DNA of 64,000 bases, taken from positions 45,614-109,613 of the IMG/VR virus record IMGVR_UViG_3300037319_000172. One strand, given 5' to 3'. This document shows positions 20,727 to 38,104 of this stretch, one piece after another. Each line of letters opens with the position of its first letter. Position 1 is the stretch's first letter. The notes under the pieces were generated by a model. That model was not told the DNA's origin. It saw only the letters and a program-made list of their open reading frames with translations, and ran no database searches. The DNA is from a virus. The position numbers and the translations under genes are program-made.

Positions 20727-21320
20727 TTATTTATAATGTCCTCCACCTAACCAAAGAACGAATGATTTTCTAATACCCTTAGTTACGGGTCTAACTGAAT
20801 GAACTAGATAACTTGGAAATAATACGACAGTACCTTTTCCTCTTGGAGCAATAAGATTATTAGTATTTAGGCTTTCTCCTCCCATCCAGAAACAAAGGTC
20901 TCCTCCTTCGTATTCGCTTGAATCAGATAACTGAACTGTTATTGATATTTTTCTAACAGACATACTATCGTTTCCAACATCTTGATGCCAGTCATATTTC
21001 CCTAGTTCGTCAGCATTGTATTCAGTATATTGTATTAATTCAGGGGCTGAAGTTGCATCAAATTTCCACATTGTGTCATTCGCTTCGCTAGCGAATACTA
21101 TTAGTTTTTCGTACAACCAATTCCACTCTGTAGTTTGTGGAATCCATTTTATATTTGATTTACGATCAGGTGTTATTCCTCCATCTGTCACTGCTCTGAC
21201 GTAATCTAGATTATTAACGCCGTCTTCAATCCATCTTAATTCCTCAGATGTGAATCCTTTATCAAACCAATAATAGTCCACTGCTTTGTTTTGATTAGGT
21301 TCGAATATATTACTTCTCAT
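20727..21320 (-). CDS. 2OG-Fe(II) oxygenase (PKHD / prolyl-hydroxylase-like)
   Basis: Y.WHQD, RKIS..VQLS...YEGG.L, FPS...H.V.PVT.G.RKS.V.W. Confidence 0.9.
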   Translation of the reverse strand: MRSNIFEPNQNKAVDYYWFDKGFTSEELRWIEDGVNNLDYVRAVTDGGITPDRKSNIKWIPQTTEWNWLYEKLIVFASEANDTMWKFDATSAPELIQYTEYNADELGKYDWHQDVGNDSMSVRKISITVQLSDSSEYEGGDLCFWMGGESLNTNNLIAPRGKGTVVLFPSYLVHSVRPVTKGIRKSFVLWLGGGHYK

Positions 21321-23196
21321 TTTCGTTATATGTTATATTAACTATTCCTTCTTCTTCACCATACCTTGATTCTGTATTTATAGGATAGCTTGGATTCTCT
21401 TCATATGCCCAGTCATGTTGTCCTAACTCTTCAAATCTTAATTTTATCTTTTCGTTATAATACATTGATATAGTTCGGGTTCTTCTTTGAATATCTGCTC
21501 TAGATAAATCATGAGTGTTCCTGTGCCCTGCATTACTATATAGAAATTGAATGTAACTTAGTTTAGGTATCTTACACATTAATGTATGTAAAAAGGTTCT
21601 AACGATTAATTCATAATCATCAACAACTGTTAAACTTCTGTTATGTCCTCCTATTTCGAAATATGTAGTTCTTCTCCATGCTCTAATGTGATTAGGCACT
21701 CCAACAATATGTCTTATTGTTTTAGGATTGATATTCTGTTGATTAGCAGGTGATAACATTCTACCTTGATATTCTTCATCTCTATAGTTACCGTATCCTA
21801 ATGCAAATCCAGGTTCGTATTTATGATTCTCCCATTGTTCATTTACTTCTGCAGTATCTCCGTAAAAGAATCCGCATTCAGGATGTTTTTGTGCTGCCTT
21901 GTGTAAATCTTCAGCACATGTTTCCGCTAATAGATCGTCATGATCTAGTTCTGCAAGAATATATCCTTTAGCCATTACATTAGATCTCCATTTAACTTCT
22001 CCAATAACTCCACCTGATTTTTCTCTAAAGTCATACACTCTAACTCTTGGATCGTTTTTCGCAATCTCTTCAGCTATTTTTAGTGTTTTACCTCCATCAG
22101 TAGAATCATTCATTAATATCCATTCCCAGTTTCCATAAGATTGTCTAGCAACTGATTCGTATGTGTTCCATAACTTATCTCCTGTATTATAAATAGGAGT
22201 AGTAAATGATATTAAGCTCTGATCATTTAAATTAGTAGGATCTAACATCGCGTTTTCTGAAACACTATATGCGATATCACCAACTAGGTTCATGTCTCCG
22301 TCATCATCTATGTTTATCCACTTTCTTCTAAATTGAAGAGGTAAACTGCAAAGTGTAGGAAATGAATCAGAACTTTCTCCTCTAGTAACTATAGAGTCTG
22401 GTTTAAATTCAGAAATAACTTTACTTATATTATCATCATTTTTAACATACATTACTGTTAAATTATTATCTTCATAATCCAATACCTTTGATGTCTTTAA
22501 CTGAGGTCTTCCTTCACCGACATACAACACTCTTGGTAGTTTAGGAGTTGACTCCTTTTGTAATTTATTATAGTGTGAAAGTATTTCATCTATCCAAACG
22601 AAGCGACTCGGGTGATCCTTGTAAACTTCATCAATAAAGAATCCGTCTGCTGCATAATCTGCAGTGAATCCATATTCATCAAAAAGATCTCCTCTTAATA
22701 ATACTTGAGCGATATCTGTTTTCTGATAACCTGTATTTTGTGGAGTTGCTTCCCTATATTTTAATCCTGTAAAATCTTTACCATTGACATCTTGTCCGAC
22801 AACAATCATTACTTTATCTGAATTACTAGGAATCGTTAAATGTTCTTCTATTCTTTGATAAAAATCGGAATGCATTATATTATCATCATCTAGTAAATAA
22901 AACCAACCAGATCCTCGAGTAACCATATCGGATTCGTGTGAAACTATATGTCTTATTAAGTCAGTAGTTTCAGGATACATCATCCCTCCTTTTTTACCTT
23001 TGATAAAATGTATTGTTGTATTTTCTTGATCTAATTCTGCAAGTACCTCTGCGTCAATATCCTTAAGCGATCCTGTATCAAACATGATGTGCCAATGGAT
23101 ATCTACATTTGCTGTTTTAGAATTATCAAAAACTGTAGGTTTGATTTTTAAAAGATTAGACGTACGGGTACACCTTGTTATTACATTAATTTTCAT
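21310..23196 (-). CDS. Tandem GT-A (GT2) glycosyltransferase
   Basis: Two GT-A domains (YLLDDDN; TPIYN..SV.RQ...WEW...ND.STD, ELDHDD, DDYEL). Confidence 0.85.
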   Translation of the reverse strand: MKINVITRCTRTSNLLKIKPTVFDNSKTANVDIHWHIMFDTGSLKDIDAEVLAELDQENTTIHFIKGKKGGMMYPETTDLIRHIVSHESDMVTRGSGWFYLLDDDNIMHSDFYQRIEEHLTIPSNSDKVMIVVGQDVNGKDFTGLKYREATPQNTGYQKTDIAQVLLRGDLFDEYGFTADYAADGFFIDEVYKDHPSRFVWIDEILSHYNKLQKESTPKLPRVLYVGEGRPQLKTSKVLDYEDNNLTVMYVKNDDNISKVISEFKPDSIVTRGESSDSFPTLCSLPLQFRRKWINIDDDGDMNLVGDIAYSVSENAMLDPTNLNDQSLISFTTPIYNTGDKLWNTYESVARQSYGNWEWILMNDSTDGGKTLKIAEEIAKNDPRVRVYDFREKSGGVIGEVKWRSNVMAKGYILAELDHDDLLAETCAEDLHKAAQKHPECGFFYGDTAEVNEQWENHKYEPGFALGYGNYRDEEYQGRMLSPANQQNINPKTIRHIVGVPNHIRAWRRTTYFEIGGHNRSLTVVDDYELIVRTFLHTLMCKIPKLSYIQFLYSNAGHRNTHDLSRADIQRRTRTISMYYNEKIKLRFEELGQHDWAYEENPSYPINTESRYGEEEGIVNITYNENEK

Positions 23197-23206
23197 TTAG
23201 TATGGT

Positions 23207-24145
23207 TTATTGTTGTATGTCAAAAAAGAACATGTGAAAAAATCGTGAGTTATCTATTGCGTCTCCGAAGTATTCGGTTGCTGCGTGTATCTGTGATGAG
23301 TTGAAAATTACGAGTCTATTATATACGTTACCAATATCATCTATCTTTTCAAATAGAGTTCCATCGTAAAAGTTCATAGCTTCGTTTGTTCCTTTAAATG
23401 TGTGAAAGTATTCATCTCCCATTCTAGATTCCTGTCCTGGAAAAGAATTTATACCTGTTACTTTACTTCGGTACATTGATGTTCCAGTAGGTGCAGGTGC
23501 GTTTGGTGTTAAGTATACCATTGCGGCATACATTTGAGAATCTACATGATAAACAATAGGCTGATCAGCAGTACAATATTGAAATACACCATTAGCGTAT
23601 CCTACATTGTTCCAGTTTGTTATCTTTCTACCTAATATTTCTTCTAACTTTTCTTTAGTTCCATCTAGTATAAATCTAGAATTTGATCTCTGTCCTTTAT
23701 GATAATCCGATGGAGTGTATTCAAGGTTTTGCATCGCATATTCTCTAACAAGATCTGGATCTGCATAGAAATTATCTACAACAATGACATCTTTATCTGT
23801 TGGGTTAAACCCTGATGAAACAGCTGCCCATTTTCCTATAGAAACAAACTCTTCAGGTTCTTCACCATTAAAACTTATTCTTAATTTAGAATTTATTAAA
23901 TGTTTGGGAATAGATATGTTGAATCCAGTGCAAAAGTCTAAAGATCCTTCATAGTATCTAGATACATCTATCCTAGGTTCCCATTCTATTTTTAATTTAA
24001 TATCTTCTATTAATAAATCTATAAAGTTAATTTTTCTATCGCTGTTTGTAGAACCTATCCAACCTCTTACATTCCATGTTGAATCTAATCCTTCAGATAC
24101 TTCATCAACATTAAGTAATATATTTTTAATATTAGTAGTATGCAT
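23207..24145 (-). CDS. 2OG-Fe(II) oxygenase-like protein (DUF6445-like) with N-terminal accessory domain
   Basis: VVDNFY.DPD.VREYA, HVD, VYLTP, GT, YNRLVIF....HAA..YFG...R....FF. Confidence 0.75.
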   Translation of the reverse strand: MHTTNIKNILLNVDEVSEGLDSTWNVRGWIGSTNSDRKINFIDLLIEDIKLKIEWEPRIDVSRYYEGSLDFCTGFNISIPKHLINSKLRISFNGEEPEEFVSIGKWAAVSSGFNPTDKDVIVVDNFYADPDLVREYAMQNLEYTPSDYHKGQRSNSRFILDGTKEKLEEILGRKITNWNNVGYANGVFQYCTADQPIVYHVDSQMYAAMVYLTPNAPAPTGTSMYRSKVTGINSFPGQESRMGDEYFHTFKGTNEAMNFYDGTLFEKIDDIGNVYNRLVIFNSSQIHAATEYFGDAIDNSRFFHMFFFDIQQ

Positions 24146-24197
24146 TCTTATTTCTTTAATTATTATACGATTAATTTGCTATTTGTTTATATATTAC

Positions 24198-24229
24198 AAA
24201 AAAAAGGATCCCATTTCTGAGATCCTTTT
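24198..24229 (-). terminator. Intrinsic terminator after collagen genes
   Basis: aaaaggatc..gatcc-ttttttt stem-loop. Confidence 0.7.
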
Positions 24230-24255
24230 AACTATTTATATTTACTATTTATTAT

Positions 24256-27219
24256 TTAGAAACGTCCTCTACCTCCACCTCCACCTGGTCCTGAGCTTAT
24301 TTCTTCTTTTCTGTTGTGTGTTACTATTCCGTTTGCTATATAAACGTCATCGTTTTCAACATCCAATCTCCATACTCTCTGATGTACTCCTTCAAATAAA
24401 GGACTCATTGTAATCGTATCGACTACGATTTTACTAAATGAATCTTTAAGTAATAAGAAATCTCCCTGTAGTAGTTCAGATGTTTTTAAAGTTCGCCATT
24501 CACCATTTCTCTCTGCAATATGTAAATGGTCTGCTGAAGCTTCTATTATTCCATTAATATTGTATGAATACATTACTAGTATTTCAACGTTAGAAGTTAC
24601 TGTTGATTCTGAAAATGTAGCGTTTAATTCGCTTGATCTCCATTCTTTTAAAACAGCATATTCATCTGAATCAGGCATGGTGTCTATATGTACTGATTTT
24701 ACGATATTTCCTACTTCTACATTTTCTATACTTTTAAAAGAACCATCATTCATTTCAATTTGTGTTCCTTCTATTAAACAGCCGGGTCCGCCTCCTGTAT
24801 TTATTATAGAAGTTACTAATCCATTAGATAATCCGATAAAAATATTACTAGTACTAAAACTCCTATCTGAATCTGAACCTCCAGACAAAGTACGTCCTCT
24901 ATATCCTTGAGGTCCTCTTGAATTATAATTCCCATTATTTCCTCTGTAACCTTGAGCTCCTCTTGGTCCACCATTTCCTTGAGCTCCTCTTGGACCTTTA
25001 TATCCACCGGGTCCATTATTACCTTTTGTACCTTGAGCTCCTTGAGCTCCTCTAGCAGCAACTCCGTAATTTGTACCTTGTGATCCTTTTGGTCCTTTAG
25101 GTCCTTGATTTCCTGTTAATCCCTTTACGGTAGATGTTGTTCCTTGAGATCCTTGAGGACCTTGAGGACCCGTTGAACCTGTATTTCCTTGAAATCCTCT
25201 TGGCATAGCACCTTGAGCTCCTTGAGCTCCTTGATATCCTTTATATCCTTTATATCCTCTATCATAAAAACCACTAAAACCTTGAGGTCCAGTAAGTCCT
25301 TTATTACCTTGAGCTCCTCTTTGCTTAGCTCCAATAGCTCCTGTAGGTCCTGCTTCTCCTTTCACTCCTGTAGGTCCTCGGTTAGTAGCTCCTTCGAATC
25401 CATCAGCTCCTCCATCTCCTACAGTTCCTTTATCTCCTCTTGGATTATTACCTTGAGATCCTTTATATCCTCCATCTCCTTTAAGACCTTGAGATCCTCT
25501 TGGAAAAGCACCTTGATATCCAGTAGGACCTGCGTCTCCTAGAGCTCCTTGAGGCCCTACTGGTGAATCTCCAGTATTACCTTGAGATCCTTGAGTTCCT
25601 TGAGTTCCTCTAAGTCCTTGTGGATCATCTCCTATATGTCCTTGAGCTCCTTTAGTTCCTTGATTTCCTTTAGTTCCTTGCGGTTCGTATCCTGGATTTC
25701 CCTTAGATGCTTGAGTTCCTTGAACTCCTCTATCTCCTCTTGGATTGTATCCTTGATATCCACCAGGACCTCCGTTTCCTTGAGCTCCTTGATCTCCTCT
25801 AGGTGTTGCTCCTTGTGCTCCTTTATATCCTTGATCTCCTTGAAAACCTTCATATCCTTTAGGACTTGCTCCTTTTGATCCTTTTAATCCTTGATCTCCT
25901 TTAGGACCTGCTGGTGATACGGGTGTACTACCTTGATTTCCTTGAGCTCCTTTATTTCCTTGATGACCTCTATGTCCTGTTGGATTTGCTCCTTTAAATC
26001 CTCTATCTCCCTGGTTTCCTTGAAAACCTTCATATCCTGTAGGACTTGCTCCACCAGTTCCTTGATTTCCTTGAGTTCCTTTATCTCCTTCATATCCTGT
26101 AGGTTCTGCTCCTGGTAAACCATTTTGTCCTGTAGCTCCTTTATCTCCTTTGAATCCTGTTAAACGATCTCCTTGTGATCCTTTATTTCCTTTATCTCCT
26201 TTGAATCCTTTATAACCTTTAATACTATCTCCTTGATTTCCTTGATTTCCTATAAAACCAGTATCACCTGATATTGCTGGATTTGTTGATCCTTGAGAAC
26301 CTTTAGGTCCATCAGGTCCATCCTCTCCTTTAATTCCTTTAGGGCTTGCTCCAGTAGTTCCTTTAAATCCTAATTCACCACTTTCACCTTTAAGTCCTAT
26401 TGGTGAAGCTCCTTTATTTCCAGTATCTCCTTGTGCACCGTCTGGTCCAGAATCTGGAGACAATGTAATACCTTGATCTCCTCTAAAACCCTGAGCTCCT
26501 TGATTTCCTTGATTTCCTTTTATATTATCACCAATAGCACCTTGATTTCCTTGAGCTCCTCTATCTCCTTCAGGTCCTGTTGGACTATCTCCATCAGCTC
26601 CTTTATCTCCATTAGGGCCATCATCTCCTTTAGCTGCAGTATCTGTAGCTCCTTGAGGTCCTCTTGGTCCCTCAGTTCCTTTATCTCCTTTATAACTAGT
26701 AATTAGATTACCGTCTAATCCCTTATGGCCTTGATCTCCAATAGATCCTATAGCTGCTTCTTCTGTTTTACCTTTAGAACCTTGAGCTCCCTTAGATCCC
26801 TTAGATCCTTGTTCACCCTGTGGACTAAATCCATCATCTCCTTGGAATCCAGTAGGACCTTGAGGCTCATCACCATCAATTCCTAAAAGACCTTGACTAC
26901 CTTGAAAACCAACTTCCCCTTCAAAGCCTTCATCTCCTATTGGATTATCTCCCTGTATTCCACGCTCTCCTTCAATACCTGTAGGTTCTTCACCTTCTAA
27001 TCCTTGATCTCCTTTTAACCCTTGATTTCCTTGATTTCCTTGATCTCCTTTTAACCCTTGATTTCCTTGATCTCCTTGGAATCCTTGATCTCCAGTTAAT
27101 CCTTGATCTCCTTGAAATCCTTGATCTCCTATAAATTCTGAGTAAGCATTTTTATCGAAATTACCGACATGTAGAGGAGTTTCTCCCCCTACTGTCGATC
27201 CTGTTCTTAACTTTGCCAT
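24256..27219 (-). CDS. Collagen-like fibre protein with C-terminal Hint (BIL-type) domain
   Basis: Gly-X-Y from aa 31 to ~775 with periodic interruptions; CLIEGT...SADH...Y.ANGIVTHN. Confidence 0.88.
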   Translation of the reverse strand: MAKLRTGSTVGGETPLHVGNFDKNAYSEFIGDQGFQGDQGLTGDQGFQGDQGNQGLKGDQGNQGNQGLKGDQGLEGEEPTGIEGERGIQGDNPIGDEGFEGEVGFQGSQGLLGIDGDEPQGPTGFQGDDGFSPQGEQGSKGSKGAQGSKGKTEEAAIGSIGDQGHKGLDGNLITSYKGDKGTEGPRGPQGATDTAAKGDDGPNGDKGADGDSPTGPEGDRGAQGNQGAIGDNIKGNQGNQGAQGFRGDQGITLSPDSGPDGAQGDTGNKGASPIGLKGESGELGFKGTTGASPKGIKGEDGPDGPKGSQGSTNPAISGDTGFIGNQGNQGDSIKGYKGFKGDKGNKGSQGDRLTGFKGDKGATGQNGLPGAEPTGYEGDKGTQGNQGTGGASPTGYEGFQGNQGDRGFKGANPTGHRGHQGNKGAQGNQGSTPVSPAGPKGDQGLKGSKGASPKGYEGFQGDQGYKGAQGATPRGDQGAQGNGGPGGYQGYNPRGDRGVQGTQASKGNPGYEPQGTKGNQGTKGAQGHIGDDPQGLRGTQGTQGSQGNTGDSPVGPQGALGDAGPTGYQGAFPRGSQGLKGDGGYKGSQGNNPRGDKGTVGDGGADGFEGATNRGPTGVKGEAGPTGAIGAKQRGAQGNKGLTGPQGFSGFYDRGYKGYKGYQGAQGAQGAMPRGFQGNTGSTGPQGPQGSQGTTSTVKGLTGNQGPKGPKGSQGTNYGVAARGAQGAQGTKGNNGPGGYKGPRGAQGNGGPRGAQGYRGNNGNYNSRGPQGYRGRTLSGGSDSDRSFSTSNIFIGLSNGLVTSIINTGGGPGCLIEGTQIEMNDGSFKSIENVEVGNIVKSVHIDTMPDSDEYAVLKEWRSSELNATFSESTVTSNVEILVMYSYNINGIIEASADHLHIAERNGEWRTLKTSELLQGDFLLLKDSFSKIVVDTITMSPLFEGVHQRVWRLDVENDDVYIANGIVTHNRKEEISSGPGGGGGRGRF

Positions 27220-27262
27220 TTGTATTATTTGTTTATTTTTATATTATTATATTTAAAGTAGC

Positions 27263-29785
27263 TTAACTATGATTCTTAGTAGTAATAAATCCATTGACTA
27301 CCTGTAAAACGTTATTAGAGTTATCTCTGAATTGACCGTTAAATCCAGTACCAGCACTAGTACTTCCATTAGGTCCTTTATATCCTTGAGGTCCTACTCC
27401 GTATCCTGAACCAGAAGATCCCTGTGGTCCAGTCGATGCTCCTCCTTTATATCCTTGATCTCCTTTTGGACCAGTAGATGCTACATTTCCATAGACTCCT
27501 TGAGGTCCTTTATATCCTTTTGGCCCTTTTGATCCTGAATTACCTTTAGCACCCTTATCACCTTGAGGTCCATTAGTACCTTGATTACCTTTAGGTCCGC
27601 TTGTTCCTTGATGTCCCTGATAACCTTGCGTTCCTTGGGCTCCTTGGGCTCCGTAATAACCAGCGCTTCCTTGAGATCCTGTTCTACCAATTCGTCCTTT
27701 ATTACCTTGATCTCCTTGAACACCAGGACCGCCTGAAGATGCTTGTGTTCCCTTTGCACCTGTGTTCCCTTTTAATCCCCTGTGTCCTTTATCAATTCCT
27801 CCTTGATTAACTCCTTTAACTCCTTGATCTCCTTGAGCTCCTTGATATCCTGTTGGAGAAGTATTACCATCTGCACCAACTCCACCTTGAGCTCCTCGAT
27901 CTCCTTGAACACCTCGTAGTCCATTAGAACCCTTAGCCCCTTCATCTCCTTTATTTCCTTTGAATCCTTGATATCCTTGAGGTCCTGTTAGACCTTTAGC
28001 TCCTTTAGAACCTTGAGTTCCTTGGAATCCTTTGGGCCCCTTTGATCCGGTACCTCCTTTAAGTCCTTTATCTCCTTTAAATCCTTGATATCCTCTATCT
28101 CCGACTTCTCCTTTTACTCCGTCAGGTCCTTTAACTCCTGTAAGTCCTTTAAAACCTTGAGATCCTTGATTTCCTTGTGAACCAGGCTCTCCTTTAAGTC
28201 CTATAGGACCATCATACCCTTGATATCCTTGAGGTCCATCATCACCTGTATCTCCTTTACTTCCTTGAGTTCCTCGAAATCCTTCATGTCCTTTACTTCC
28301 TTTAACATTCGATTCACCGGTAAACCCTTTAAATCCTAGATCTCCTTCATTTCCAATGACTCCTTGTACTCCCTCATCTCCTTTAAATCCTTTATCTCCT
28401 TTAGATCCTTGATTACCCTGAGATCCTGTAGCTCCAATACGTCCTTTATCTCCGTCTAGTCCTTTATAACCTTGTGATCCTTCTGCACCTTGATCTCCAT
28501 CATATCCTTTTAGTCCTTTAAATCCTTGATCTCCTGTATTACCAGTAGAACCTTGATTTCCAGTTGCTCCTTTATATCCAGTGTTTCCTTGATCTCCCTT
28601 AACTCCTTTAACTCCTTGATCTCCAGCAGTTCCTTTTGATCCTTGATTTCCTTGATCTCCGTCTAGTCCTGTATTTCCTTTAGATCCTTGGTCTCCTTTA
28701 TCTCCTTTTAAACCAGTATCTCCTTTATCTCCAGTTGCTCCCGTACTAGCGTTGAATCCTTTAAGACCTTGAGACCCTTTTGATCCTTTTGATCCTTGAT
28801 TTCCATCAGATCCTTTAAATCCTAAATCACCGTTATCTCCTTGATCTCCAATATTACCTTGATTTCCTTTAGAACCTGTAGTACCTTGATTTCCTTGATT
28901 TCCTTTATTTCCTTGAGATCCTTGATTACCTTTATCTCCGATAACCCCTTGAAAACCTTTTAAACCATTAGAACCTTGAGGTCCTTGTGATCCATCAGTT
29001 CCTTGATATCCTGTATCACCTTTAAATCCTTTAAATCCAGATTCACCTGCTGCAGAAGGAGATGCTGTATCTCCAATATTACCTTTGAATCCTTGATCTC
29101 CCTTTGATCCTTGATTTCCTTGAATACCGATAACACCCTGAGATCCTTTATTACCTTGATCACCTTGAGTACCTTGAGTACCTGCAGATCCTGTATATCC
29201 TTGAGTACCTTGATCTCCTTGATCTCCTTTTAATCCTTGATCTCCAGTTGCTTGTTTGTTTCCTTGAAAACCTCGAAGACCTTGATCTCCTTTAGTTCCT
29301 TGAGGTCCTTCATTACCTTGAAAACCTCGATCTCCTTGATCTCCAGTTCCTCCGCTAGATCCTGTATCTCCAGTATTTCCTTTAACTCCTTGATCTCCTT
29401 TAATACCAACTTCTCCTTGATTTCCGGTTTGGCCCTGAGTTCCTTGATCTCCAACTTCTCCTTGATCTCCTTTAATACCAACTTCTCCTTGGTTTCCTTT
29501 ATCTCCAATATTACCTTGATTTCCAAAAAGACCTTGATCTCCTTGATTACCATTAGTTCCTTGTTGTCCTTGTACTCCTTTATCTCCGTCAAATCCTTGA
29601 TCTCCTTTAGTTCCTTGATCACCATTATCTCCGATATCACCTAAAGCCCCTTGAGAACCTTGGCTTCCTAAGAAACCAGGTTCTCCCTGTGGTCCAACAA
29701 ATTCGGGAAAATCAGTACTATTTAGGTTCCCACTATGTAACACTGTGTTACTATCAAGTGTAGTTCCTAATATAAATTTAGCCAT
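27263..29785 (-). CDS. Collagen-like fibre protein
   Basis: Gly-X-Y from aa 31 to ~809. Confidence 0.88.
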   Translation of the reverse strand: MAKFILGTTLDSNTVLHSGNLNSTDFPEFVGPQGEPGFLGSQGSQGALGDIGDNGDQGTKGDQGFDGDKGVQGQQGTNGNQGDQGLFGNQGNIGDKGNQGEVGIKGDQGEVGDQGTQGQTGNQGEVGIKGDQGVKGNTGDTGSSGGTGDQGDRGFQGNEGPQGTKGDQGLRGFQGNKQATGDQGLKGDQGDQGTQGYTGSAGTQGTQGDQGNKGSQGVIGIQGNQGSKGDQGFKGNIGDTASPSAAGESGFKGFKGDTGYQGTDGSQGPQGSNGLKGFQGVIGDKGNQGSQGNKGNQGNQGTTGSKGNQGNIGDQGDNGDLGFKGSDGNQGSKGSKGSQGLKGFNASTGATGDKGDTGLKGDKGDQGSKGNTGLDGDQGNQGSKGTAGDQGVKGVKGDQGNTGYKGATGNQGSTGNTGDQGFKGLKGYDGDQGAEGSQGYKGLDGDKGRIGATGSQGNQGSKGDKGFKGDEGVQGVIGNEGDLGFKGFTGESNVKGSKGHEGFRGTQGSKGDTGDDGPQGYQGYDGPIGLKGEPGSQGNQGSQGFKGLTGVKGPDGVKGEVGDRGYQGFKGDKGLKGGTGSKGPKGFQGTQGSKGAKGLTGPQGYQGFKGNKGDEGAKGSNGLRGVQGDRGAQGGVGADGNTSPTGYQGAQGDQGVKGVNQGGIDKGHRGLKGNTGAKGTQASSGGPGVQGDQGNKGRIGRTGSQGSAGYYGAQGAQGTQGYQGHQGTSGPKGNQGTNGPQGDKGAKGNSGSKGPKGYKGPQGVYGNVASTGPKGDQGYKGGASTGPQGSSGSGYGVGPQGYKGPNGSTSAGTGFNGQFRDNSNNVLQVVNGFITTKNHS

Positions 29786-29837
29786 AATTGTTTATTTTAT
29801 TTTTATATGTTATGTTATATATTTTAAATATATGTGT

Positions 29838-32591
29838 CTATTTAAACATTCCTCCAGATATTCTATCAGATGAAGAACTGTCTGAATTAACCGAACCTTG
29901 ATATCCTCCTGTTCCATGATTTCCTTGATAACCTCTAGGTCCTCCAGTTCCATTACTTCCTTGAGCTCCTTTTAATCCTTGAGCTCCTTGCGTTCCATTA
30001 GGTCCTTTATATCCTACAGCACCTTGAGGTCCTCTTCCTCTATGAGCACCTGTCGTACCTTTATCACCGTTATCTCCCTGTGATCCGGCAGTACCAGCGG
30101 TTCCTGTAAATCCTTTTACTAAAGCTCCGACATGTCCTTTAGATCCTTGAGGTCCTGTAGCTCCTTTTAATCCTTTTCTCCCGGTATATCCTGTTAAAGT
30201 ACTATTAGTTCCTTTAACTCCTTGGTTACCTTGAGTTCCTTGATTTCCAGTTGCTCCTTGAAATCCACGTTGTCCTTGAACTCCTTTTGTATTTATGTCT
30301 CCTTGAGGTCCTCTATCACCTTGATATCCTTGATCTCCTTTATGTATACTCAAAGGATTTGGACCTGTATTTCCAGTTTGGCCCTGCATTCCTCTAAATC
30401 CTTGAGCTCCTTGAGATCCGTTAGGTGAAACAGTTCCCTGAGATCCTCTAAATCCTATATCTCCTTTGTATCCTTTATCTCCTTTACCTCCAACAGTTCC
30501 TTGATCTCCTTGATCTCCTCTTTGTCCTTTTAATCCATCAGGACCAGAAGCTCCTACAGTACCTTGGTGTCCTCTATATCCGTCAAAACCTTTATCTCCA
30601 CCTCCACCTGTTGCACCTGTTGCGCCTTTATCTCCTGTTGGTCCTTTATAACCATTAGTTCCTTTATCTCCGACAGGGCCTGCAGTACCTTGAGATCCTT
30701 GAGATCCGACAAAACCTATAAATCCTTTATCTCCTCTAGCTCCTTGATCTCCAGTTGGTCCTTGAATAGTGCCAATAATTCCTTTGAATCCTTGATCTCC
30801 TTTAGTTCCAGTATTACCTTGGAATCCTCTGTATCCCGCATCTCCTTTAGTTCCTATGTCTCCTTGAGTACCTACAGTACCTTGAGATCCTTGAGATCCT
30901 CTAGATCCTTTAGAACCTTGATCTCCTCGATCTCCTGAAGTACCTTGATCTCCTTGAGTTCCTTGTAGTCCTTTAAATCCTGTTGGTCCAGCAATACCGG
31001 TAGTTCCGGTAGTTCCAATATTTCCTGTTAATCCTTTGTCTCCTTGAAATCCTCTATCACCTACAGTTCCTTGATCTCCTTGAGTTCCTTTTCTATTAGT
31101 TAATGTAGTTGCATTTACTCCTTGATTACCTCTGGGTCCAGTATCTCCATTAGGTCCTACAAGACCTTTATCTCCTTTATCTCCTTGAAATCCTCTTGCT
31201 CCAGTATTTCCTTGAGATCCTCTATATCCTGATCCTGTTGATGATGTTGATTGATTAATTCCTTGATTACCTTGAACTCCAGTTGCTCCTTTGTCTCCAG
31301 TTGCTCCTTTATTTCCTTTGTCTCCTTGAACTCCTCTAACACTATCATTACCATCAGATCCCTTATCTCCTTTATCTCCTTGAGATCCTTTATCACCCTG
31401 AACTCCCAATGATCCTTGAGTTCCTTGAGTTCCAATAAGACCATCAGATCCTTTATCACCCTGAGCTCCTGTTACACCGATAAATCCGTCATCACCTTTA
31501 GTTCCTTTAAATCCTTGATCTCCAATAGATCCATTAACTCCTTGAGAACCAATTTCTCCTTTATCTCCTTGAAATCCATTGTCTCCTTTAAGACCTTCTA
31601 ATCCTTGATCTCCTTTAGTTCCTTGTTGTCCAATGTTTCCTGTTGTTCCAATAGTATCATCTTGTCCTTTAGTACCTGTCGATCCTTTGTCTCCAACGAA
31701 TCCTTGATCTCCAATAGAACCAGTTACTCCTTCTTCACCTTGATCTCCTTTACGTCCTCTAAATCCTTCAAATCCTTGATTACCTTTAGTACCGACTCTA
31801 CCTTGAAAACCAGGTTCACCATCAATACCTTGAGGTCCTCTATCACTATCTAGTCCTTTATGTCCTTGATCTCCTCTATCACCTTGATCTCCTTGATCTC
31901 CTATAGTACCATCAAATCCTTTACTACCAACTCCTCCACCGGATCCAGAACCTCCTTGTGCTCCTGTATCTCCAATAGCACCTTGATCTCCTTGATTTCC
32001 TTGGTCTCCTATTGGACCTGCAATACCTTCAGCGCCATTCTCTCCTTTAACACCTTGATCTCCTTTAATTCCTTGATCTCCTTTTTCTCCGATATTTCCA
32101 GTTTCACCTTGATGTCCTCTAGTTCCTTGATCTCCAATAGGACCTATAGATCCTTGAAAACCAGGATCTCCTTTTAATCCTATAAATCCAGGTTCACCTT
32201 GATCTCCGTCATGTCCTACAACTCCTTCATTTCCTTTATCTCCTTCAAAACCTTTATCACCAGTAGGTCCTTGAACTCCTTTATCTCCTTTTAAAGAAGG
32301 AAAGTTATTAGGTTCAAAGTTATTTGGTGTTAGTATTTGGTTATTATTAATTGTCGAATCCGACTTTAATATACCAATACCGTCAAACGTACTGTTAGAT
32401 ATAATAGCGTTGTCGCTTTTTCTAAAAGATAATACGTCTCCAGAAGGAAACGTATTTAGCTCTTGAAAATAAGATGGTGTATGAACAATATTAGTACCTT
32501 TATCGATACCAGATCTTCCAGACGTTTCGTCTAGATTAGCTTGGAATTCACCAGTAGTTTGTACCAGTTTTATCGCTATGTTATTTGCCAT
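29838..32591 (-). CDS. Collagen-like fibre protein
   Basis: Gly-X-Y from aa 102 to ~901. Confidence 0.88.
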   Translation of the reverse strand: MANNIAIKLVQTTGEFQANLDETSGRSGIDKGTNIVHTPSYFQELNTFPSGDVLSFRKSDNAIISNSTFDGIGILKSDSTINNNQILTPNNFEPNNFPSLKGDKGVQGPTGDKGFEGDKGNEGVVGHDGDQGEPGFIGLKGDPGFQGSIGPIGDQGTRGHQGETGNIGEKGDQGIKGDQGVKGENGAEGIAGPIGDQGNQGDQGAIGDTGAQGGSGSGGGVGSKGFDGTIGDQGDQGDRGDQGHKGLDSDRGPQGIDGEPGFQGRVGTKGNQGFEGFRGRKGDQGEEGVTGSIGDQGFVGDKGSTGTKGQDDTIGTTGNIGQQGTKGDQGLEGLKGDNGFQGDKGEIGSQGVNGSIGDQGFKGTKGDDGFIGVTGAQGDKGSDGLIGTQGTQGSLGVQGDKGSQGDKGDKGSDGNDSVRGVQGDKGNKGATGDKGATGVQGNQGINQSTSSTGSGYRGSQGNTGARGFQGDKGDKGLVGPNGDTGPRGNQGVNATTLTNRKGTQGDQGTVGDRGFQGDKGLTGNIGTTGTTGIAGPTGFKGLQGTQGDQGTSGDRGDQGSKGSRGSQGSQGTVGTQGDIGTKGDAGYRGFQGNTGTKGDQGFKGIIGTIQGPTGDQGARGDKGFIGFVGSQGSQGTAGPVGDKGTNGYKGPTGDKGATGATGGGGDKGFDGYRGHQGTVGASGPDGLKGQRGDQGDQGTVGGKGDKGYKGDIGFRGSQGTVSPNGSQGAQGFRGMQGQTGNTGPNPLSIHKGDQGYQGDRGPQGDINTKGVQGQRGFQGATGNQGTQGNQGVKGTNSTLTGYTGRKGLKGATGPQGSKGHVGALVKGFTGTAGTAGSQGDNGDKGTTGAHRGRGPQGAVGYKGPNGTQGAQGLKGAQGSNGTGGPRGYQGNHGTGGYQGSVNSDSSSSDRISGGMFK

Positions 32592-32625
32592 ATCTTTATT
32601 TAGTTATTTTTATTATTTATCAGTT

Positions 32626-33168
32626 TTATATAAACGTAAAGTTTACATCTCCATTAGAGCTTCTATCTATTTTGAAATCGACAACACCATTAGTATCTTC
32701 GAATTCAATAGATTTACCATCTGCTATTGTTACTGACTCTCCATCAAATTCTCCTGTATCTCCTTTAGTTCCTTTTTCACCTTGGAAACCTTGATCTCCT
32801 TTAAAACCTTGATCTCCTTTAGTTCCAACTTCTCCTTGGAATCCTTGATCTCCTTGATCTCCTTGAAAACCTTGATCTCCTTTAGTTCCTTTTTCACCTT
32901 GATCTCCTTGATCTCCTTTAGTTCCTTTTTCACCTTGATCTCCTTGAAAACCTTGATCTCCTTTAATTCCTTTTTCACCTTGAAAACCTTGAAAACCTTG
33001 ATCTCCAACTTCTCCTTGGAATCCTTGGTCTCCTGTTTCACCTTTTAATCCTTGGTCTCCTTTAGTTCCTTTTTCACCTTGAAAACCTTGATCTCCAGTA
33101 TTACCTTGATGTCCTGCCCCTTGGTCTCCTTGAGGACCTGCGGTAGAAATATATGCTGAATATGCCAT
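32626..33168 (-). CDS. Short collagen-like protein
   Basis: ~40 GDQ/GFQ/GEK/GTK triplets plus small beta-rich C-terminus. Confidence 0.85.
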   Translation of the reverse strand: MAYSAYISTAGPQGDQGAGHQGNTGDQGFQGEKGTKGDQGLKGETGDQGFQGEVGDQGFQGFQGEKGIKGDQGFQGDQGEKGTKGDQGDQGEKGTKGDQGFQGDQGDQGFQGEVGTKGDQGFKGDQGFQGEKGTKGDTGEFDGESVTIADGKSIEFEDTNGVVDFKIDRSSNGDVNFTFI

Positions 33169-33196
33169 AGTTTGATTTATCTTATTTATTTTTTAT

Positions 33197-33961
33197 TTAG
33201 TCTAATGAGTTTCTTTCGTATACTATATCAAAAACGTCTCCGCCTCCGATTTCATATCCTGCGTTATCTGAGTTCCAAAACATTGTGTCTCCTGCTGCTA
33301 AATCTGCAACTGACTTAGAAGTAGTTCCTCCGTCTGCTGAGAAATATACATCTCCTGTTTTATCTCCGTAAGTTTCTGTAATTGCTACACCGTTAATATA
33401 AACCTGCACAGTTGAATCTGCAAAAGGAGTAAAATCTAAAGTAATACCAGTAGATGACCCATCACCATTTGATTCTAAAGGCGTTAAGTCTGCTTGTGTG
33501 TGTTCTACACCTTGAGATATTGCAACTGCACCTAAACTAGGTCTCCATGGCAATACTTGCGCTTGTTTGTTTGTAATCGCTTGTAATATAGGATTACTAT
33601 AAGGAAATGTAGGATTAGATGCATTAACAAATTCTGTTATAGAACCTGTATTTGTATCATCAACTACGTAAAAAGTACCTGGAGTTAATTCCCATGAACT
33701 AATTGTAATGTTACCAATCTGTACTGCTACAAATTCTGAAGAACTTGTTGCTTCTTCAACAACTAATCTACCTAACTTATCGGCAGTCTTAGAATCTGCT
33801 AGAACCCAAGTTCCGTTAAAAAAACCTATAACATTCCCAGGAACAAAACCATGAGAAGCTTGTGTATAGCTTGATTTCAAAGACCCTGAAAGCGTCTGAA
33901 GGTCTAATGAATTTAGCTTAGCCTGTAGTCCCTCTATTTGCTTAATTTTTAATTGTGACAT
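33197..33961 (-). CDS. Virion structural protein (fibre-associated)
   Basis: C-terminal domain paralogous to that of 38268-39467; GATATATA at 34026-34033. Confidence 0.6.
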   Translation of the reverse strand: MSQLKIKQIEGLQAKLNSLDLQTLSGSLKSSYTQASHGFVPGNVIGFFNGTWVLADSKTADKLGRLVVEEATSSSEFVAVQIGNITISSWELTPGTFYVVDDTNTGSITEFVNASNPTFPYSNPILQAITNKQAQVLPWRPSLGAVAISQGVEHTQADLTPLESNGDGSSTGITLDFTPFADSTVQVYINGVAITETYGDKTGDVYFSADGGTTSKSVADLAAGDTMFWNSDNAGYEIGGGDVFDIVYERNSLD

Positions 33962-34085
33962 ATATTTTTCTTTTTTTTATAATTTATTTGACGAAAAAGC
34001 GTGTCTACTCTTTCAATACTGATTTTATATATCTGGTTTAGTAGTGTTCATTAGTTTAATAGGGCCATAATATTGTAATATAATA

Positions 34086-34676
34086 ATGATACATACTTTA
34101 ATGAATAACAATACTAAGAAAATAGTAAGAGATTACATATACTTTACTGAAACATTAGATGATGTTAAATCAACTTCTCAAGCTGCCGAGGGTCAATTCC
34201 GTAGTGCGATGAGTAAACACAATGAACCTGCACTTGAAGCACTATCACCTCCTAAGGGTACTCCTCCTATTAGTAAAATAGAGGATGAAGAGCATGTTAA
34301 ATTCGAAGATAAAAACTTTAAAAAGCTTTTTAGAAAATTAGTAGTTAAATGCCATCCAGATAAATTAGATGATTCCTATTCTGAAACAGAAGGAATGTTC
34401 TTAAAAGAATGTTATGAAAATTTAACTAAAAGTAATCAAACATATGATTGGGGAATGCTATTAAGAGTGTCAATTGATTTAAAAGTGGATGTACCTGATT
34501 TAAGCGATGAAAACTTAAAAAACATTATCGATAACATAGAATCTATTAAGAATAACATTAGTAAATTTGAAGGATCCATGGCATATAAATGGTATACCCT
34601 TCCTGATGAAAATGAAAAGAAAGGGTATTTAGAAAATTGTGCTAAAATATTTATGTTTAGTTTAAGTAAGCGTTAA
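34086..34676 (+). CDS. J-domain protein
   Basis: FKKLFRKLVVKCHPDK; only plus-strand gene in this block. Confidence 0.7.
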   Translation: MIHTLMNNNTKKIVRDYIYFTETLDDVKSTSQAAEGQFRSAMSKHNEPALEALSPPKGTPPISKIEDEEHVKFEDKNFKKLFRKLVVKCHPDKLDDSYSETEGMFLKECYENLTKSNQTYDWGMLLRVSIDLKVDVPDLSDENLKNIIDNIESIKNNISKFEGSMAYKWYTLPDENEKKGYLENCAKIFMFSLSKR

Positions 34677-35452
34677 ACATCCCATACTCCATTCATATGA
34701 CATCTAACATATGTCGGTTGAGAATATAGTGCGCCGTTCTTATATCTACCTTGTACTTCCTTTATAAAGAAAATATCTTCAGAAATACTACTAGAAATAA
34801 CGTCCTGCCATTTGTTTGATATATTACTGACATGCATGAATAACCACGGAGCCATTATCTGTCTACCTTTTGCAAATTGCATTGGTTTCCAAGTTTCTGG
34901 TAATCCTGCAAGTTCTACACTTTCAATAGTATTAGGATCTATTATACCAGTTAAATTCTTTTCTGTTCCAGTAACTCGGCTGTTATCATACCAAGATCCA
35001 TTAATCCACCATGTCTTTTCAGGTTCTGCGTTATATTCTAATAATGCTGACATAGTATGATTAGGCATTATGTAATCGTCTGAATCCATATAAGTTATAA
35101 GAGATCCGGTTGATGCTGCTATTCCAAGTTGCCTAGCTGCTCCTCTATAGTAGGTTCCTTCTTCCATTTCTTCATACATTTTTGGAGTATTAGATCTGTC
35201 ATAATATACAAATTTAATATTAGCATTTTCTTTATGAGATCTATTATATAGCTGGTGCGTCTTGTTACATCCGTCTGCTACTATAATCAATTCACAATTT
35301 TTATAAATTTGGTTGTTAAAACTTTCAACTGCCCTATGAAATTTATTAATAGAATCTTCTCTTGCTCCTGGATATTTTTCCAGATTAACTTGCATTATTA
35401 TTGATATTTTAACTTTATCTAAAGCTTCGTATATTTCTTTAAAATCGTTCAT
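34673..35452 (-). CDS. GT2-family glycosyltransferase
   Basis: RAVESF..Q....ELIIVADG, ARQLG, YMDSDD, ED. Confidence 0.8.
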   Translation of the reverse strand: MNDFKEIYEALDKVKISIIMQVNLEKYPGAREDSINKFHRAVESFNNQIYKNCELIIVADGCNKTHQLYNRSHKENANIKFVYYDRSNTPKMYEEMEEGTYYRGAARQLGIAASTGSLITYMDSDDYIMPNHTMSALLEYNAEPEKTWWINGSWYDNSRVTGTEKNLTGIIDPNTIESVELAGLPETWKPMQFAKGRQIMAPWLFMHVSNISNKWQDVISSSISEDIFFIKEVQGRYKNGALYSQPTYVRCHMNGVWDV

Positions 35453-36648
35453 TATTTATATAAGTTTGTTTTCCAATTATATTCGTATGACAACTCATGT
35501 TTATTTGGATTAAATAAGTTGTCTATAAGTTTTTTATATGTATCAACCAATTCAGGGTTAGTTGACGTATATCTATTTAGTATTGGTTTGTTTTTTTCAA
35601 TGTATTCTTCAATGTTTTTATCATGATCCTGCAATGCAATTTTAAGTTGCTCAGCGCCTTTTGTTATATTAAATCCTTCATAATAATATCCTCCATCCTT
35701 AATCATGTCTGCATTATGAACAAGTGGGTACCCGTAGTACATTGCGTCTAAATATGCATAGTTTAATGGGTTTTCCCATTGGTGTGAAATGACAATATCG
35801 GTTTCACTTGAAAGGAACGTTGAAATAGGATATCTACCTACAAATTTTATTTTATTATCGCTTGAATTAACTATATCGAAATGCTTAATCATATCAAGAT
35901 AGTATTTATTTGTAATAAGCTTTTTACCTGAACCTATAAATATTTGCTTGAATGAAGCTTCACCTAAATCTCTAAATATCTTTTCAGCAATCATGATTGG
36001 TATTAATGAATATTTTACAACATTCAAATTAGGTTCCATTACTGATAGCTTCTTTTTATGCTGAGCCTTTGGTGTATACTTAGGAGTTTTCTTTCCGGCT
36101 TTTGTTAGTAATTTATCAAAATCATCTAAAGGTTCTGGATCCCAAACAAAAGGAACGATATGTACTTGTGAATCGTTCTGTCTATATATAGTCTTATAAT
36201 ATTCTAAGTTCTGATATTCTTGTTGAGGTATAATCCAAGTTGCGTCATGTCCGCTATCCCATGAAGGCTTCTCTCCTTCACTTGCTTTATCAAATAATAC
36301 TCTTTCCATATCTACAACATAACTATTGCCGCATTGATATTTTACTATTTTTATATTTGGATTAGATTCTTTAATCTTTTTTATTCTACTAGTAGGCAAT
36401 GAAGATCCTATCATGAATAACAAATCTAATTTGTTTTCCATGTCTATAAATTTAGCTATTTTATATTTACTATAATCCCAATTTACTTTGGTTAAATCAT
36501 CAACTGCAGTCCCAGTGTCTAATATGTAAACATCTAGCCCTTCGATCTGGCCTAGCATTTTTGATAAATTCAAAGCATTTAGTTTAATACCATTGATCCA
36601 CATGCTTTCGTATTCGGTATTTAGCGATATTGATATTCCTACTTTCAT
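35452..36648 (-). CDS. DUF2827-like putative glycosyltransferase
   Basis: W.NGI..N, CGN.Y, VPFVWDP, MEPN.NVVK...P, SHQWENPLNY.Y.D....YPLVHN. Confidence 0.7.
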   Translation of the reverse strand: MKVGISISLNTEYESMWINGIKLNALNLSKMLGQIEGLDVYILDTGTAVDDLTKVNWDYSKYKIAKFIDMENKLDLLFMIGSSLPTSRIKKIKESNPNIKIVKYQCGNSYVVDMERVLFDKASEGEKPSWDSGHDATWIIPQQEYQNLEYYKTIYRQNDSQVHIVPFVWDPEPLDDFDKLLTKAGKKTPKYTPKAQHKKKLSVMEPNLNVVKYSLIPIMIAEKIFRDLGEASFKQIFIGSGKKLITNKYYLDMIKHFDIVNSSDNKIKFVGRYPISTFLSSETDIVISHQWENPLNYAYLDAMYYGYPLVHNADMIKDGGYYYEGFNITKGAEQLKIALQDHDKNIEEYIEKNKPILNRYTSTNPELVDTYKKLIDNLFNPNKHELSYEYNWKTNLYK

Positions 36649-36742: not shown

Positions 36743-38104
36743 TTAGAATTGGTAAACGAATACTACTGTATCCTCTGAATCGATTGTGTACCCTGGAGTA
36801 GACAATGTAACTGCTGCTCCTGCGATAGATTCTGCAAATACTCTTGATCCGTTAACGAATACATCTACTAGAGATAATTGAGCCTCTTGGACTGTATTTG
36901 CTAATGTATATACTAAACCATTTCCTGCGAAAGATTCAGTTGCCATTTGATCATCTTCGATTATAGCTGCTTCTACAGTATCTAATCTTCCAGCTAAAGC
37001 TGCATCAGCGTTAGCTAAATTGATTACATCCTCGTTAGTTGCAGAAATCTCAGAAGATAGTTCTGTTTGTAAATCAAGTACATCTGCATTTGTTGCAGAA
37101 ATCTCAGAAGATATTTCTCCATCAATTCTTGTAACATCAGAGTTAGTATCTGCAATCTCATTGTTTAAATTCAAGATTACTGCTGCTAAAGCGTCGTCAT
37201 TTACAGTATCAACCGCGTTGATGATAGAAACTACATCTGCGAAAGAGTCTGGATCTGCGTCTACTGCGTTTAATATAGATGCGAACTTGTTTGAAGTTGC
37301 AAGTACCTCAGTAGATAAAGCTCCATCAATTCTTGTAACATCTGCATTAGTATCAGCAATTTCACTTGCTAATTCTCCATTAAGTCTTGTAACCTCAGAG
37401 TTAGTTGCAGCTATTTCACCTGCTACTTCCCCATCAATTCTTATAACTTCAGAGTTAGTTGCAGAAATCTCTGCAGATAAAGCTACTTCTAAAGCGTCAA
37501 CTGAATCAACTAAATCTCCAGAAACTTCTCCTAATCTAGCATCGATAGAAGTTACATCTCCATTAGTCGCATTGATTTCAGTAGCTAATTCTCCGTTAAG
37601 TCTTGTAACTTCTGAATTAGTTGCTGTGATTTCAGCAGCTATTGCAGCGTCGATTCTTGTAACATCTGAATTAGTTGCAGCTATCTCGTTGTTTAAATTC
37701 GAGATTACTACTGCTAAAGCGTCGTCATTTACAGTATCAACCGCGTTGATGATAGAAACTACATCTGCGAAAGAGTCTGGATCTGCACCAACTGCATCTA
37801 AAATAGCAGAAAACTGAGTTGAAGTAGAAAGTATCTCTGTAGATAATGCTTCATCAATTCTTGTAACGTCTGCGTTAGTATCAGCAATTTCACTTGCTAA
37901 TTCTCCTTCAACTCTTACAAAATCAGAACTAGTTGCAGAAATCTCTGCTTCTAAATCGTTATTAACTCTTATAGCTTCAGTAGATATTTCATCTTTAACG
38001 TACCTTGCGATGTCTGCCGTATTGGCAATCTCAAAGTTAGAAGTTGCCCCCCAGTTTACTGTGCTTAAAAAATCCTTAATTTGTTTTGAACGAATTTGTG
38101 CCAT
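36743..38104 (-). CDS. Acidic coiled-coil fibre protein with ~18-aa repeats
   Basis: Repeats of EIxATNxDVTRID; large internal duplication; C-terminal beta domain (VFVNG). Confidence 0.7.
   Translation of the reverse strand: MAQIRSKQIKDFLSTVNWGATSNFEIANTADIARYVKDEISTEAIRVNNDLEAEISATSSDFVRVEGELASEIADTNADVTRIDEALSTEILSTSTQFSAILDAVGADPDSFADVVSIINAVDTVNDDALAVVISNLNNEIAATNSDVTRIDAAIAAEITATNSEVTRLNGELATEINATNGDVTSIDARLGEVSGDLVDSVDALEVALSAEISATNSEVIRIDGEVAGEIAATNSEVTRLNGELASEIADTNADVTRIDGALSTEVLATSNKFASILNAVDADPDSFADVVSIINAVDTVNDDALAAVILNLNNEIADTNSDVTRIDGEISSEISATNADVLDLQTELSSEISATNEDVINLANADAALAGRLDTVEAAIIEDDQMATESFAGNGLVYTLANTVQEAQLSLVDVFVNGSRVFAESIAGAAVTLSTPGYTIDSEDTVVFVYQF
37183..37787. repeat. 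Internal direct repeat, 528-nt period
   Basis: ~75-nt identical blocks starting at 37183 and 37711 (encoding DPDSFADVVSIINAVDTVNDDALA). Confidence 0.8.

Follow-up and report, generated by a model that had tools for sequence, protein, structure and literature searches.

A DUF6445 oxygenase and a glycosyltransferase accompany collagen-like genes in a huge marine phage and in two distant lineages

Known and proposed enzymes acting on collagen-like proteins

The subject of this paper is a fibre block in the IMG/VR virus record IMGVR_UViG_3300037319_000172, in which four collagen-like genes are flanked by genes for putative modifying enzymes. The window analysed, 64,000 nucleotides spanning positions 45,614 to 109,613 of the record, forms the end of a viral contig, AT-rich and 109.6 kb long, and coordinates given without a locus label are numbered from its first letter. 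Collagen-like proteins of prokaryotes and phages are generally thought to fold without the hydroxylation and glycosylation required by animal collagens, the exceptions known to us being BclA of Bacillus anthracis and mimivirus L230. In BclA, triplet Thr residues of the collagen-like region are O-glycosylated directly, without hydroxylation (PMC6222408). The mimivirus collagen lysine pathway is virus-encoded (PMC5802723, PMC9546862). L230 and the PLOD/LH enzymes with COLGALT1/LH3 resemble the present locus in that an Fe(II)- and 2-oxoglutarate (2OG)-dependent oxygenase and GT-A glycosyltransferases (GTs) lie beside, or act on, collagen proteins. The phage locus differs from them in that its oxygenases are not members of the LH family by sequence and are nearer in fold to prolyl hydroxylases, and in that the enzymes also accompany Lys-free collagens. 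Moreover, the phage oxygenase next to the collagens belongs to an unstudied family, DUF6445, and has an N-terminal β-sandwich of its own. Freeman and colleagues are said to have found in 2023 that GTs encoded by mycobacteriophages glycosylate the phages' own virion proteins (capsid and tail tube); neither an oxygenase nor a collagen is present there, and the common point is the action of phage GTs on the phage's own structural proteins. In the literature that was searched, no proposal that phage enzymes modify collagens came up.

Genes for DUF6445, a GT and collagen-like proteins co-occur in three deeply separated lineages, namely huge marine phages, the chromosomes of Thiothrix and Thiolinea, and a T4-like cyanophage. 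The original prediction for this DNA held that the phage modifies its fibres, possibly by way of hydroxylysine. The general proposal gains support from these three lineages and from the position of DUF2827 genes beside adhesins, while the hydroxylysine route is not supported; overall, we think it somewhat more probable than the alternatives taken together that the enzymes of the locus modify the fibres. They would do so in the host cytoplasm, prior to assembly. DUF6445 and the two-domain GT downstream of it would be a pair travelling with the collagen genes, which would oxidise and glycosylate collagen-like proteins at an acceptor that would be neither Lys- nor Pro-based, Thr/Ser and Gln/Asn being the candidates. 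The DUF2827 protein and a small family-2 GT (GT2) would glycosylate a coiled-coil fibre. A further oxygenase, 2OG_197, may be an optional prolyl-hydroxylase-like accessory, and a J-like protein may be an optional folding helper.

The oxygenase–glycosyltransferase pair and its collagen genes

Nearly all genes from about 44.6 kb down to position 1 are carried on the minus strand, and the region from 20.2 to 40.2 kb is a fibre block that comprises four collagen-like fibres, a coiled-coil fibre, other fibre proteins and enzymes. The collagen-like genes, all on the minus strand, encode protein A (24256–27219; 987 residues, much interrupted, with a Hint-like domain at the C-terminus), protein B (27263–29785; 840 residues), protein C (29838–32591; 917 residues) and protein D (32626–33168; 180 residues). 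These match PF01391 at 185, 358, 352 and 81 bits, respectively, against a cut-off of 27.2, and their triplets number 218 in 36 runs in A, 248 in B, where the longest run is 49, 251 in C and 43 in D. On the 3′ side of the collagens lie the 312-residue DUF6445 protein (23207–24145), the 628-residue two-domain GT (21310–23196) and the 197-residue PF13640 oxygenase 2OG_197 (20727–21320), all on the minus strand. On the 5′ side are a 254-residue protein, the J-like protein on the plus strand, a 259-residue GT2, the DUF2827 protein and a 453-residue repetitive coiled-coil protein. Coordinates and Pfam matches thus bear out the arrangement originally described, of four collagens flanked by 2OG oxygenases and a GT on one side and by J-like, GT2 and DUF2827 genes on the other; every gene position listed was correct, on the minus strand throughout with the exception of the J-like gene. 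Within the 110-kb contig PF13640 matches a single gene and PF00535 two, and none of these lies outside the block. Because these are the only such genes of the contig, and because the gene order is kept in relatives, the clustering of the enzymes here is not a matter of chance.

The contig, with an estimated completeness of about 35% (CheckV), comes from a huge marine phage that is uncultured and for which no close relative in culture was found. We assign it so because the best match of its UvsW-type helicase is a 462-kb uncultured phage (56%) and because its IMG/VR relatives extend up to 175–256 kb. Megablast searches with both flanks against 50,697 phage records gave no match, and neither did a tblastn search with DUF2827 against the same records. 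An identity as a T4-like pelagimyophage (cf. PMC7029224) was rejected, as the large proteins gave no T4-like PHROG matches.

From IMG/VR we gathered 73 related loci, 62 of them with DUF6445. The conserved order is orf227, orf399, the coiled-coil fibre, DUF2827, GT2, the J-like gene where present, the 254-residue protein, one to five collagens, DUF6445, the two-domain GT, 2OG_197 where present, orf117 and an exonuclease. Synteny in related phages had been proposed as a check on the locus, and the cassette order is indeed conserved, down to about 45–50% protein identity. A collagen gene lies upstream of DUF6445 in 51 of the 62 loci and is directly adjacent in 40, while five more have too little upstream sequence; the two-domain GT is directly 3′ of DUF6445 in 53. 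2OG_197 and the J-like protein are optional, each being found in some relatives only. Taken alone, synteny within the clade could be mere inherited gene order, and the argument for fibre modification is therefore made from independent contexts as well.

One of these is an island in six Thiothrix/Thiolinea genomes, consisting of a full-length DUF6445 gene, a GT gene, a gene for a 164-residue protein and a PF01391 collagen gene, and flanked, as judged by N-terminal sequences, by apparent dnaE and rnhB/lpxB. The Thiolinea DUF6445 protein is 40% identical to the phage protein over its full length, including the N-terminal domain, and the first 243 residues of the Thiolinea GT match residues 345–580 of the phage GT (29% identity, E 3e-26). 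In the cultured T4-like Synechococcus phage DSL-LC02, a DUF6445 protein of 44% identity occurs with a putative mannosyltransferase and sits among four annotated fibre genes, three of which have collagen-like GTQ/GTT repeats. Directly upstream of it is a 717-residue protein (L086, 6812–8962, annotated as an FkbM methyltransferase) that combines tetratricopeptide repeats (TPR) with FkbM and radical SAM/SPASM domains; SPASM enzymes are typically peptide modifiers. Two further cyanophages have DUF6445 in the vicinity of fibres: in S-WAM2 it follows tail-fibre genes, alongside another 2OG oxygenase, and in S-SCSM2R a TPR-fused DUF6445 lies about 7 kb from collagen-like repeats. TPR fusions are found in both oxygenase families. 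The purified-virion proteome of S-SCSM2R contains a 2OG-Fe(II) oxygenase, 'prolyl 3,4-dihydroxylase ofd1' (ORF269) (PMC12801897); it is this phage, too, that encodes the TPR–DUF6445 fusion. The cyanophage loci also show that the caveat attached to the original prediction, that 2OG oxygenases and GTs are common near the fibre genes of aquatic phages, was correct.

DUF6445 proteins consisting of the catalytic domain only are found in diverse bacteria, where a lasso cyclase (Asn_synthase-like) homologue is present in 15 of 17 loci and a B-protease (Transglut_core3-like) in 9 of 17. Pfam confirmed four of the cyclases and two of the proteases, and the genes were directly adjacent where inspected. 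The homologues concerned show 31–41% identity; the phage protein differs in having the extra N-terminal domain and in being paired with a GT and collagens. In the canucin cluster, the Fe/2OG enzyme CanE hydroxylates the lasso precursor; CanE is likened to DUF6445 here by its role. In view of the lasso-cluster contexts and the CanE precedent, peptide substrates are, by analogy, plausible for the DUF6445 family. An attempt to read residue specificity from the lasso precursors beside DUF6445 was dropped, as the precursors could not be confidently identified. In a tree of the catalytic domains, support is high for each of the phage, Thiothrix, DSL-LC02/S-SCSM2R and lasso groups, whose long branches all arise at an unresolved node. 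The association of DUF6445 with collagen has therefore persisted across lineages of ancient divergence.

Judged by their profiles, motifs and predicted models, both proteins of the phage are genuine 2OG oxygenases. The DUF6445 protein matches PF20043 at 46.4 bits (cut-off 24), and its model, with a predicted local distance difference test score (pLDDT) of 86.7, consists of an N-terminal β-sandwich (residues ~1–102) followed by an Fe(II)/2OG double-stranded β-helix (~113–312); all 24 homologues compared keep H200-x-D202, H287 and R301. The closest folds are OGFOD1 (Z 13.7, over residues 113–312), the Trichoplax prolyl hydroxylase TaPHD (12.9) and Pseudomonas PPHD (12.2), after which Z falls smoothly via small-molecule oxygenases to L230 (10.4, rank 29); the PBCV-1 collagen prolyl hydroxylase vCPH is at 11.4 and LH3 at 9.8. 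An Atlas look-up of the N-terminal domain returned unnamed clusters only, all scoring below 0.9. 2OG_197 matches PF13640 at 50.4 bits (cut-off 27), its model has a pLDDT of 95, and H112-x-D114, H174 and R184 never vary among 65 sequences, while S186 hardly does. It is most similar in fold to TaPHD (Z 19.9), PPHD (19.8), OGFOD1 (17.8), vCPH (17.4) and PHD2 (17.3), prolyl hydroxylases that can be aligned over nearly the whole chain at 16–21% identity; L230 (14.3, rank 22) and LH3 (13.7) score lower. A structural comparison of the two oxygenases with PLOD and prolyl 4-hydroxylase (P4H) had been proposed as a check, and in both cases prolyl hydroxylases outrank L230 and LH3, the fold shared by all of them being generic. 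Moreover, phmmer searches with both oxygenases against all Protein Data Bank (PDB) chains, with E up to 1, returned no lysyl hydroxylase and no L230. 2OG_197 is thus akin to the PF13640/P4Hc prolyl hydroxylases vCPH, PPHD, PHD2 and OGFOD1 in Pfam family, in the HxD...H...R motif and in fold (Z 17–20). Collagen P4H hydroxylates Pro at the Y position; in contrast, the Pro of the phage collagens is at X. Literature searches returned no papers on DUF6445 and nothing on PiuC function.

The 628-residue GT had been described as a double GT2. This holds for its C-terminal domain, which matches PF00535 over residues 331–468 at 64.3 bits and contains an invariant DHDD motif (418–421). The N-terminal half is only weakly GT-A-like: it has no Pfam match itself, a PDB profile search gave nothing usable, and five of 20 homologues match PF00535, weakly (best E 7e-5). 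It does contain a DDD run in which D104 is invariant and D103 and D105 are present in at least 90% of homologues. Prediction of a complex between this GT and DUF6445 gave a score of 0.00, which is no verdict and counts neither way.

Acceptor residues and rival explanations

In a count of 746 triplets, the Y position is occupied by Gln in 249 (33%), Lys in 169 (23%) and Thr in 77 (10%). Pro is found 54 times at X and seven times at Y, Asp is the most frequent X residue (152 of 746, 20%) and Lys hardly ever occurs at X, in agreement with the original description of Pro mainly at X and of Gln, Lys and some Thr at Y. This preference of Lys for Y counts in favour of a collagen lysyl hydroxylase among the oxygenases, with GTs that then glycosylate hydroxylysine, after the manner of PLOD/LH3 with COLGALT1 and of L230. 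The adjacency of an oxygenase and a GT, and the presence of L230 and LH3 among the fold matches, point the same way. Nevertheless, Lys at Y varies between 0 and 27% across those relatives in which DUF6445 and the GT are retained. It is 0–0.8% in L026–L028, L029, L058, L064, L065 and L004, all of which have kept the pair and several of which also keep 2OG_197. The 524-residue Thiolinea collagen lacks Pro, with Ala, Ser or Thr at X and Gln, Thr or Asn at Y, where Lys makes up 3%; the DSL-LC02 collagens have Thr or Ala at X, Thr or Gln at Y, 0% Lys and 1–3% Pro. Retention of the enzymes beside such collagens, together with the negative PDB search and the low rank of L230 behind prolyl hydroxylases, makes the hydroxylysine route very improbable.

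Since the linked collagens include ones that are nearly free of Lys and nearly free of Pro, DUF6445 cannot depend on either residue. The linked collagens all share Gln (or Asn) at Y and a high content of Thr or Ser, and nothing else. The abundance of Thr/Ser, at X or Y, in most cassette-linked collagens, including those of Thiolinea and DSL-LC02, is a point of likeness to BclA, for which we know of no dedicated 2OG oxygenase partner of the DUF6445 family. Because direct O-glycosylation of the BclA type needs no oxygenase, glycosylation of Thr would not fix the role of DUF6445; hydroxylation of another residue and glycan tailoring are both candidates. We suggest, as a tentative possibility that we hold to be less likely than its negation, that DUF6445 with its N-terminal β-sandwich constitutes a new class of collagen hydroxylase, acting on Gln/Asn at Y or on Thr/Ser, which together with a dedicated GT would form a mobile three-gene maturation unit of huge marine phages, cyanophages and Thiothrix. 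In that event, prokaryotic collagen chemistry would be distinct from that of animals and giant viruses.

The relation of 2OG_197 to Pro is less clear-cut. Lineages that have the gene show 8–40% Pro at X, as against mostly 3–11% in those without it, and lower Lys at Y. Pro at Y is non-zero in all 2OG_197 lineages, and small non-zero values are also seen in three loci that lack the gene. This trend comprises 2–3 independent contrasts with no statistical power and is suggestive at most. The enzyme might instead be a prolyl hydroxylase of the PHD/PPHD/OGFOD1 type whose substrate is a non-fibre protein of host or phage, such as a translation factor or a ribosomal protein, and whose location is incidental. 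Its top fold matches are of the PHD type, with substrates that include EF-Tu and RPS23, it belongs to a very large family (8088 representatives, mainly stand-alone proteins of ~200 residues), and many relatives have retained collagens but not this gene. Yet it is the sole PF13640 gene in 110 kb and lies within the fibre block, and the collagens of its carriers are, with the limits just stated, richer in Pro at X; we judge an incidental location to be rather unlikely.

Several observations weigh against modification of the fibres by these enzymes. The fold matches of both oxygenases, which come from predicted models, are generic and give no substrate. The substrates, like every chemical step proposed here, we infer: gene neighbourhood is what assigns the enzymes to the fibres, beside the gene content, enzyme folds, catalytic motifs and cross-lineage synteny that we observe. 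DUF2827 is a putative GT on the basis of a preprint and a weak language-model lead, not of sequence. In S-SSM7, DUF6445 is found inside a nucleotide-sugar/GT cluster with no fibre within 9 kb, a context that would fit glycan tailoring and host-envelope modification equally well. In the subclade L059–L062 (record G001), some 20 kb separate DUF6445 and the GT from the collagens, and neither DUF2827 nor PF13640 is present. In L021, DUF6445 adjoins non-collagen fibres, and two genes after it is a dTDP-4-dehydrorhamnose 3,5-epimerase (RmlC, 203 bits; L021, 11645–12190), which ties that locus to deoxy-sugar supply. Published accounts of pelagimyophages and cyanophages take the GTs of their fibre regions to be modifiers of O-antigen, cell wall or DNA (PMC7029224; PMC12801897). 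All of the exceptional loci, and the published reading, are in keeping with the main rival explanation, in which the enzymes alter the host envelope (O-antigen, capsule or cell wall) or the phage DNA and merely sit in a plastic host-recognition region. What speaks for the fibres instead is that the same oxygenase and GT stand beside a collagen in the four-gene Thiothrix island, that relatives of DUF6445 occur in lasso clusters, where peptide substrates are likely, and that DUF2827 tracks fibrous adhesins (see below). In addition, the translations and Pfam searches revealed no sugar-nucleotide synthesis, flippase or polymerase genes in the block. We therefore regard envelope or DNA modification as unlikely, although it retains appreciable weight.

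It could also be supposed that the gene order has simply been inherited, without functional coupling, in a single phage family with collinear genomes. A majority of the 62 loci do form one clade, in which the flanking exonuclease and orf117 are conserved too. But the trio of DUF6445, GT and collagen recurs in bacterial chromosomes and in a T4-like cyanophage with wholly different flanks, and the DUF6445 lineages involved are separated by long branches, so that there is little to recommend this explanation. If the enzymes do modify the fibres, many aquatic phages and some bacteria would be chemically tailoring them, with consequences for how hosts are recognised, how stable the fibres are and how grazers or immune recognition are evaded. 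The GTs and 2OG oxygenases that marine phages carry as 'auxiliary' genes, usually ascribed to modification of lipopolysaccharide or DNA, would then need rereading. Functions that can be tested are thereby proposed for two DUF families, DUF6445 and DUF2827, and small expressible systems are available in the 180-residue collagen D, the four-gene Thiolinea island and the cultured phage DSL-LC02.

DUF2827, the coiled-coil fibre and neighbouring genes

The DUF2827 gene (35452–36648, minus strand) encodes a protein that matches PF10933 at 312 bits over 362 of 362 profile positions and is putatively a GT-B-like glycosyltransferase of fibrous proteins. A 2026 preprint describes bacterial DUF2827 genes beside trimeric autotransporter adhesins, frequently as tandem sets of two or three, states that there is structural homology to GTs and proposes that the products are cytoplasmic GTs. 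We recovered 80 bacterial DUF2827 loci, and in each of the four tested the large gene directly upstream encodes YadA stalk and anchor domains. The place of DUF2827 in the phage clade is behind the coiled-coil fibre in every locus that shows both genes. In this phage the fibre is coil453 (36743–38104, minus strand), recognised by the repeats in its translation and by synteny and lying directly upstream of DUF2827; it has weak coiled-coil Pfam matches only, including Baculo_PEP_C, which also matches one bacterial adhesin. The phage protein belongs to the same Pfam family as the adhesin-linked DUF2827 proteins of Burkholderiales, is 33–38% identical to them and occupies the same place, right after a long trimeric fibre gene. 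The two arrangements differ in that the phage has a 453-residue coiled-coil fibre without YadA domains, and one DUF2827 copy per site rather than 2–3 in tandem; function is predicted in both. The GT2 neighbour, GT2_259 (34673–35452, minus strand; PF00535, 38.5 bits), adjoins DUF2827 in relatives as well. By the parallel with the DUF2827 genes that follow adhesins in bacteria, DUF2827 and this GT2 may serve the coiled-coil fibre rather than the collagens, coil453 being the likeliest substrate of DUF2827. In its gene neighbourhoods, DUF2827 is linked with greater consistency to this fibre than to collagens. A DUF2827 profile search against PDB sequences gave nothing usable, and in a comparison of language-model features the nearest clusters outside DUF2827 were GT56 (score 0.92, 153 shared features), which is a weak lead. 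Two MAG-derived loci (MAG, metagenome-assembled genome) are worth recording. L118, labelled as a Synechococcus MAG, has a large upstream open reading frame and four copies of DUF2827 in a layout like that of Polaromonas loci. L093 (CALPIE020000118.1, labelled as a Bifidobacterium breve MAG) holds within 7 kb the 254-residue protein, the coiled-coil fibre, DUF2827 (43%), the J-like protein and GT2, and is probably a stretch of phage DNA that was assigned to this MAG by a binning error.

As the original prediction had noted, a second DUF2827 paralogue (59776–60945, minus strand), 32% identical to the first copy (E 8e-58), is near another collagen; the distance is ~2.2 kb, or two genes. The collagen in question is a partial fifth collagen-like gene (63141–63998, minus strand) with 52 consecutive triplets and a C-terminal globular domain, which runs off the end of the contig. 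That the contig ends inside a collagen gene suggests a failure of assembly in repeats. Adjoining the paralogue is a gene for a HAD-like protein (60942–61496, minus strand) with a DxDxT motif and a match to PF03767 at E 0.009 only, and nearby is one for a 474-residue fibre-like protein with a Ser/Gly-rich tail (61695–63119, minus strand). The related genome G004 also has a second DUF2827 copy.

The J-like protein J196 (34086–34676), an accessory, is encoded by the sole plus-strand gene of the region. Its designation as a J-protein holds in part: the internal HPD motif and the flanking helix residues are invariant in six homologues, while the DnaJ match (PF00226, 23.4 bits) is below the cut-off of 27.8. 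A canonical DnaJ is encoded 2 kb from the block (18129–18923, minus strand; J domain 77 bits, DnaJ_C 96 bits), and J196 is for this reason considered to be a second, atypical J protein. The homologue in L005 (13063–14265, minus strand) has an extra C-terminal region of ~200 residues with a P-loop-like sequence, GHPRTGTG; its assignment as a sulfotransferase was dropped because there was no Pfam match.

The 254-residue fibre-associated protein (33197–33961, minus strand) invariably precedes the collagens in relatives and has no Pfam or PHROG match. Beyond the region originally described, orf399 and orf227 (38268–40193, minus strand) are by synteny further conserved members of the fibre block; neither has a Pfam match, and the orf399 homologues of L004, L005 and L010 bear collagen repeats. 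The C-terminus of collagen A (24256–24800, minus strand) is Hint/intein-like as read from the translation, with a Cys1 in CLIEGT and then VTHN, an Arg and a short Gly-rich tail; this domain has no Pfam match at E ≤ 0.01 and no homologue in the collagens of the 73 related loci. Outside the block is a gene for a 658-residue ClpC-like AAA+ ATPase (42671–44647, minus strand; phrog_4871, E 4e-241). In the subclade formed by L059–L063 and L067, an apparent 657-residue homologue of this protein, identified by its N-terminal sequence, lies directly upstream of DUF6445, at the site occupied by collagens in the other relatives.

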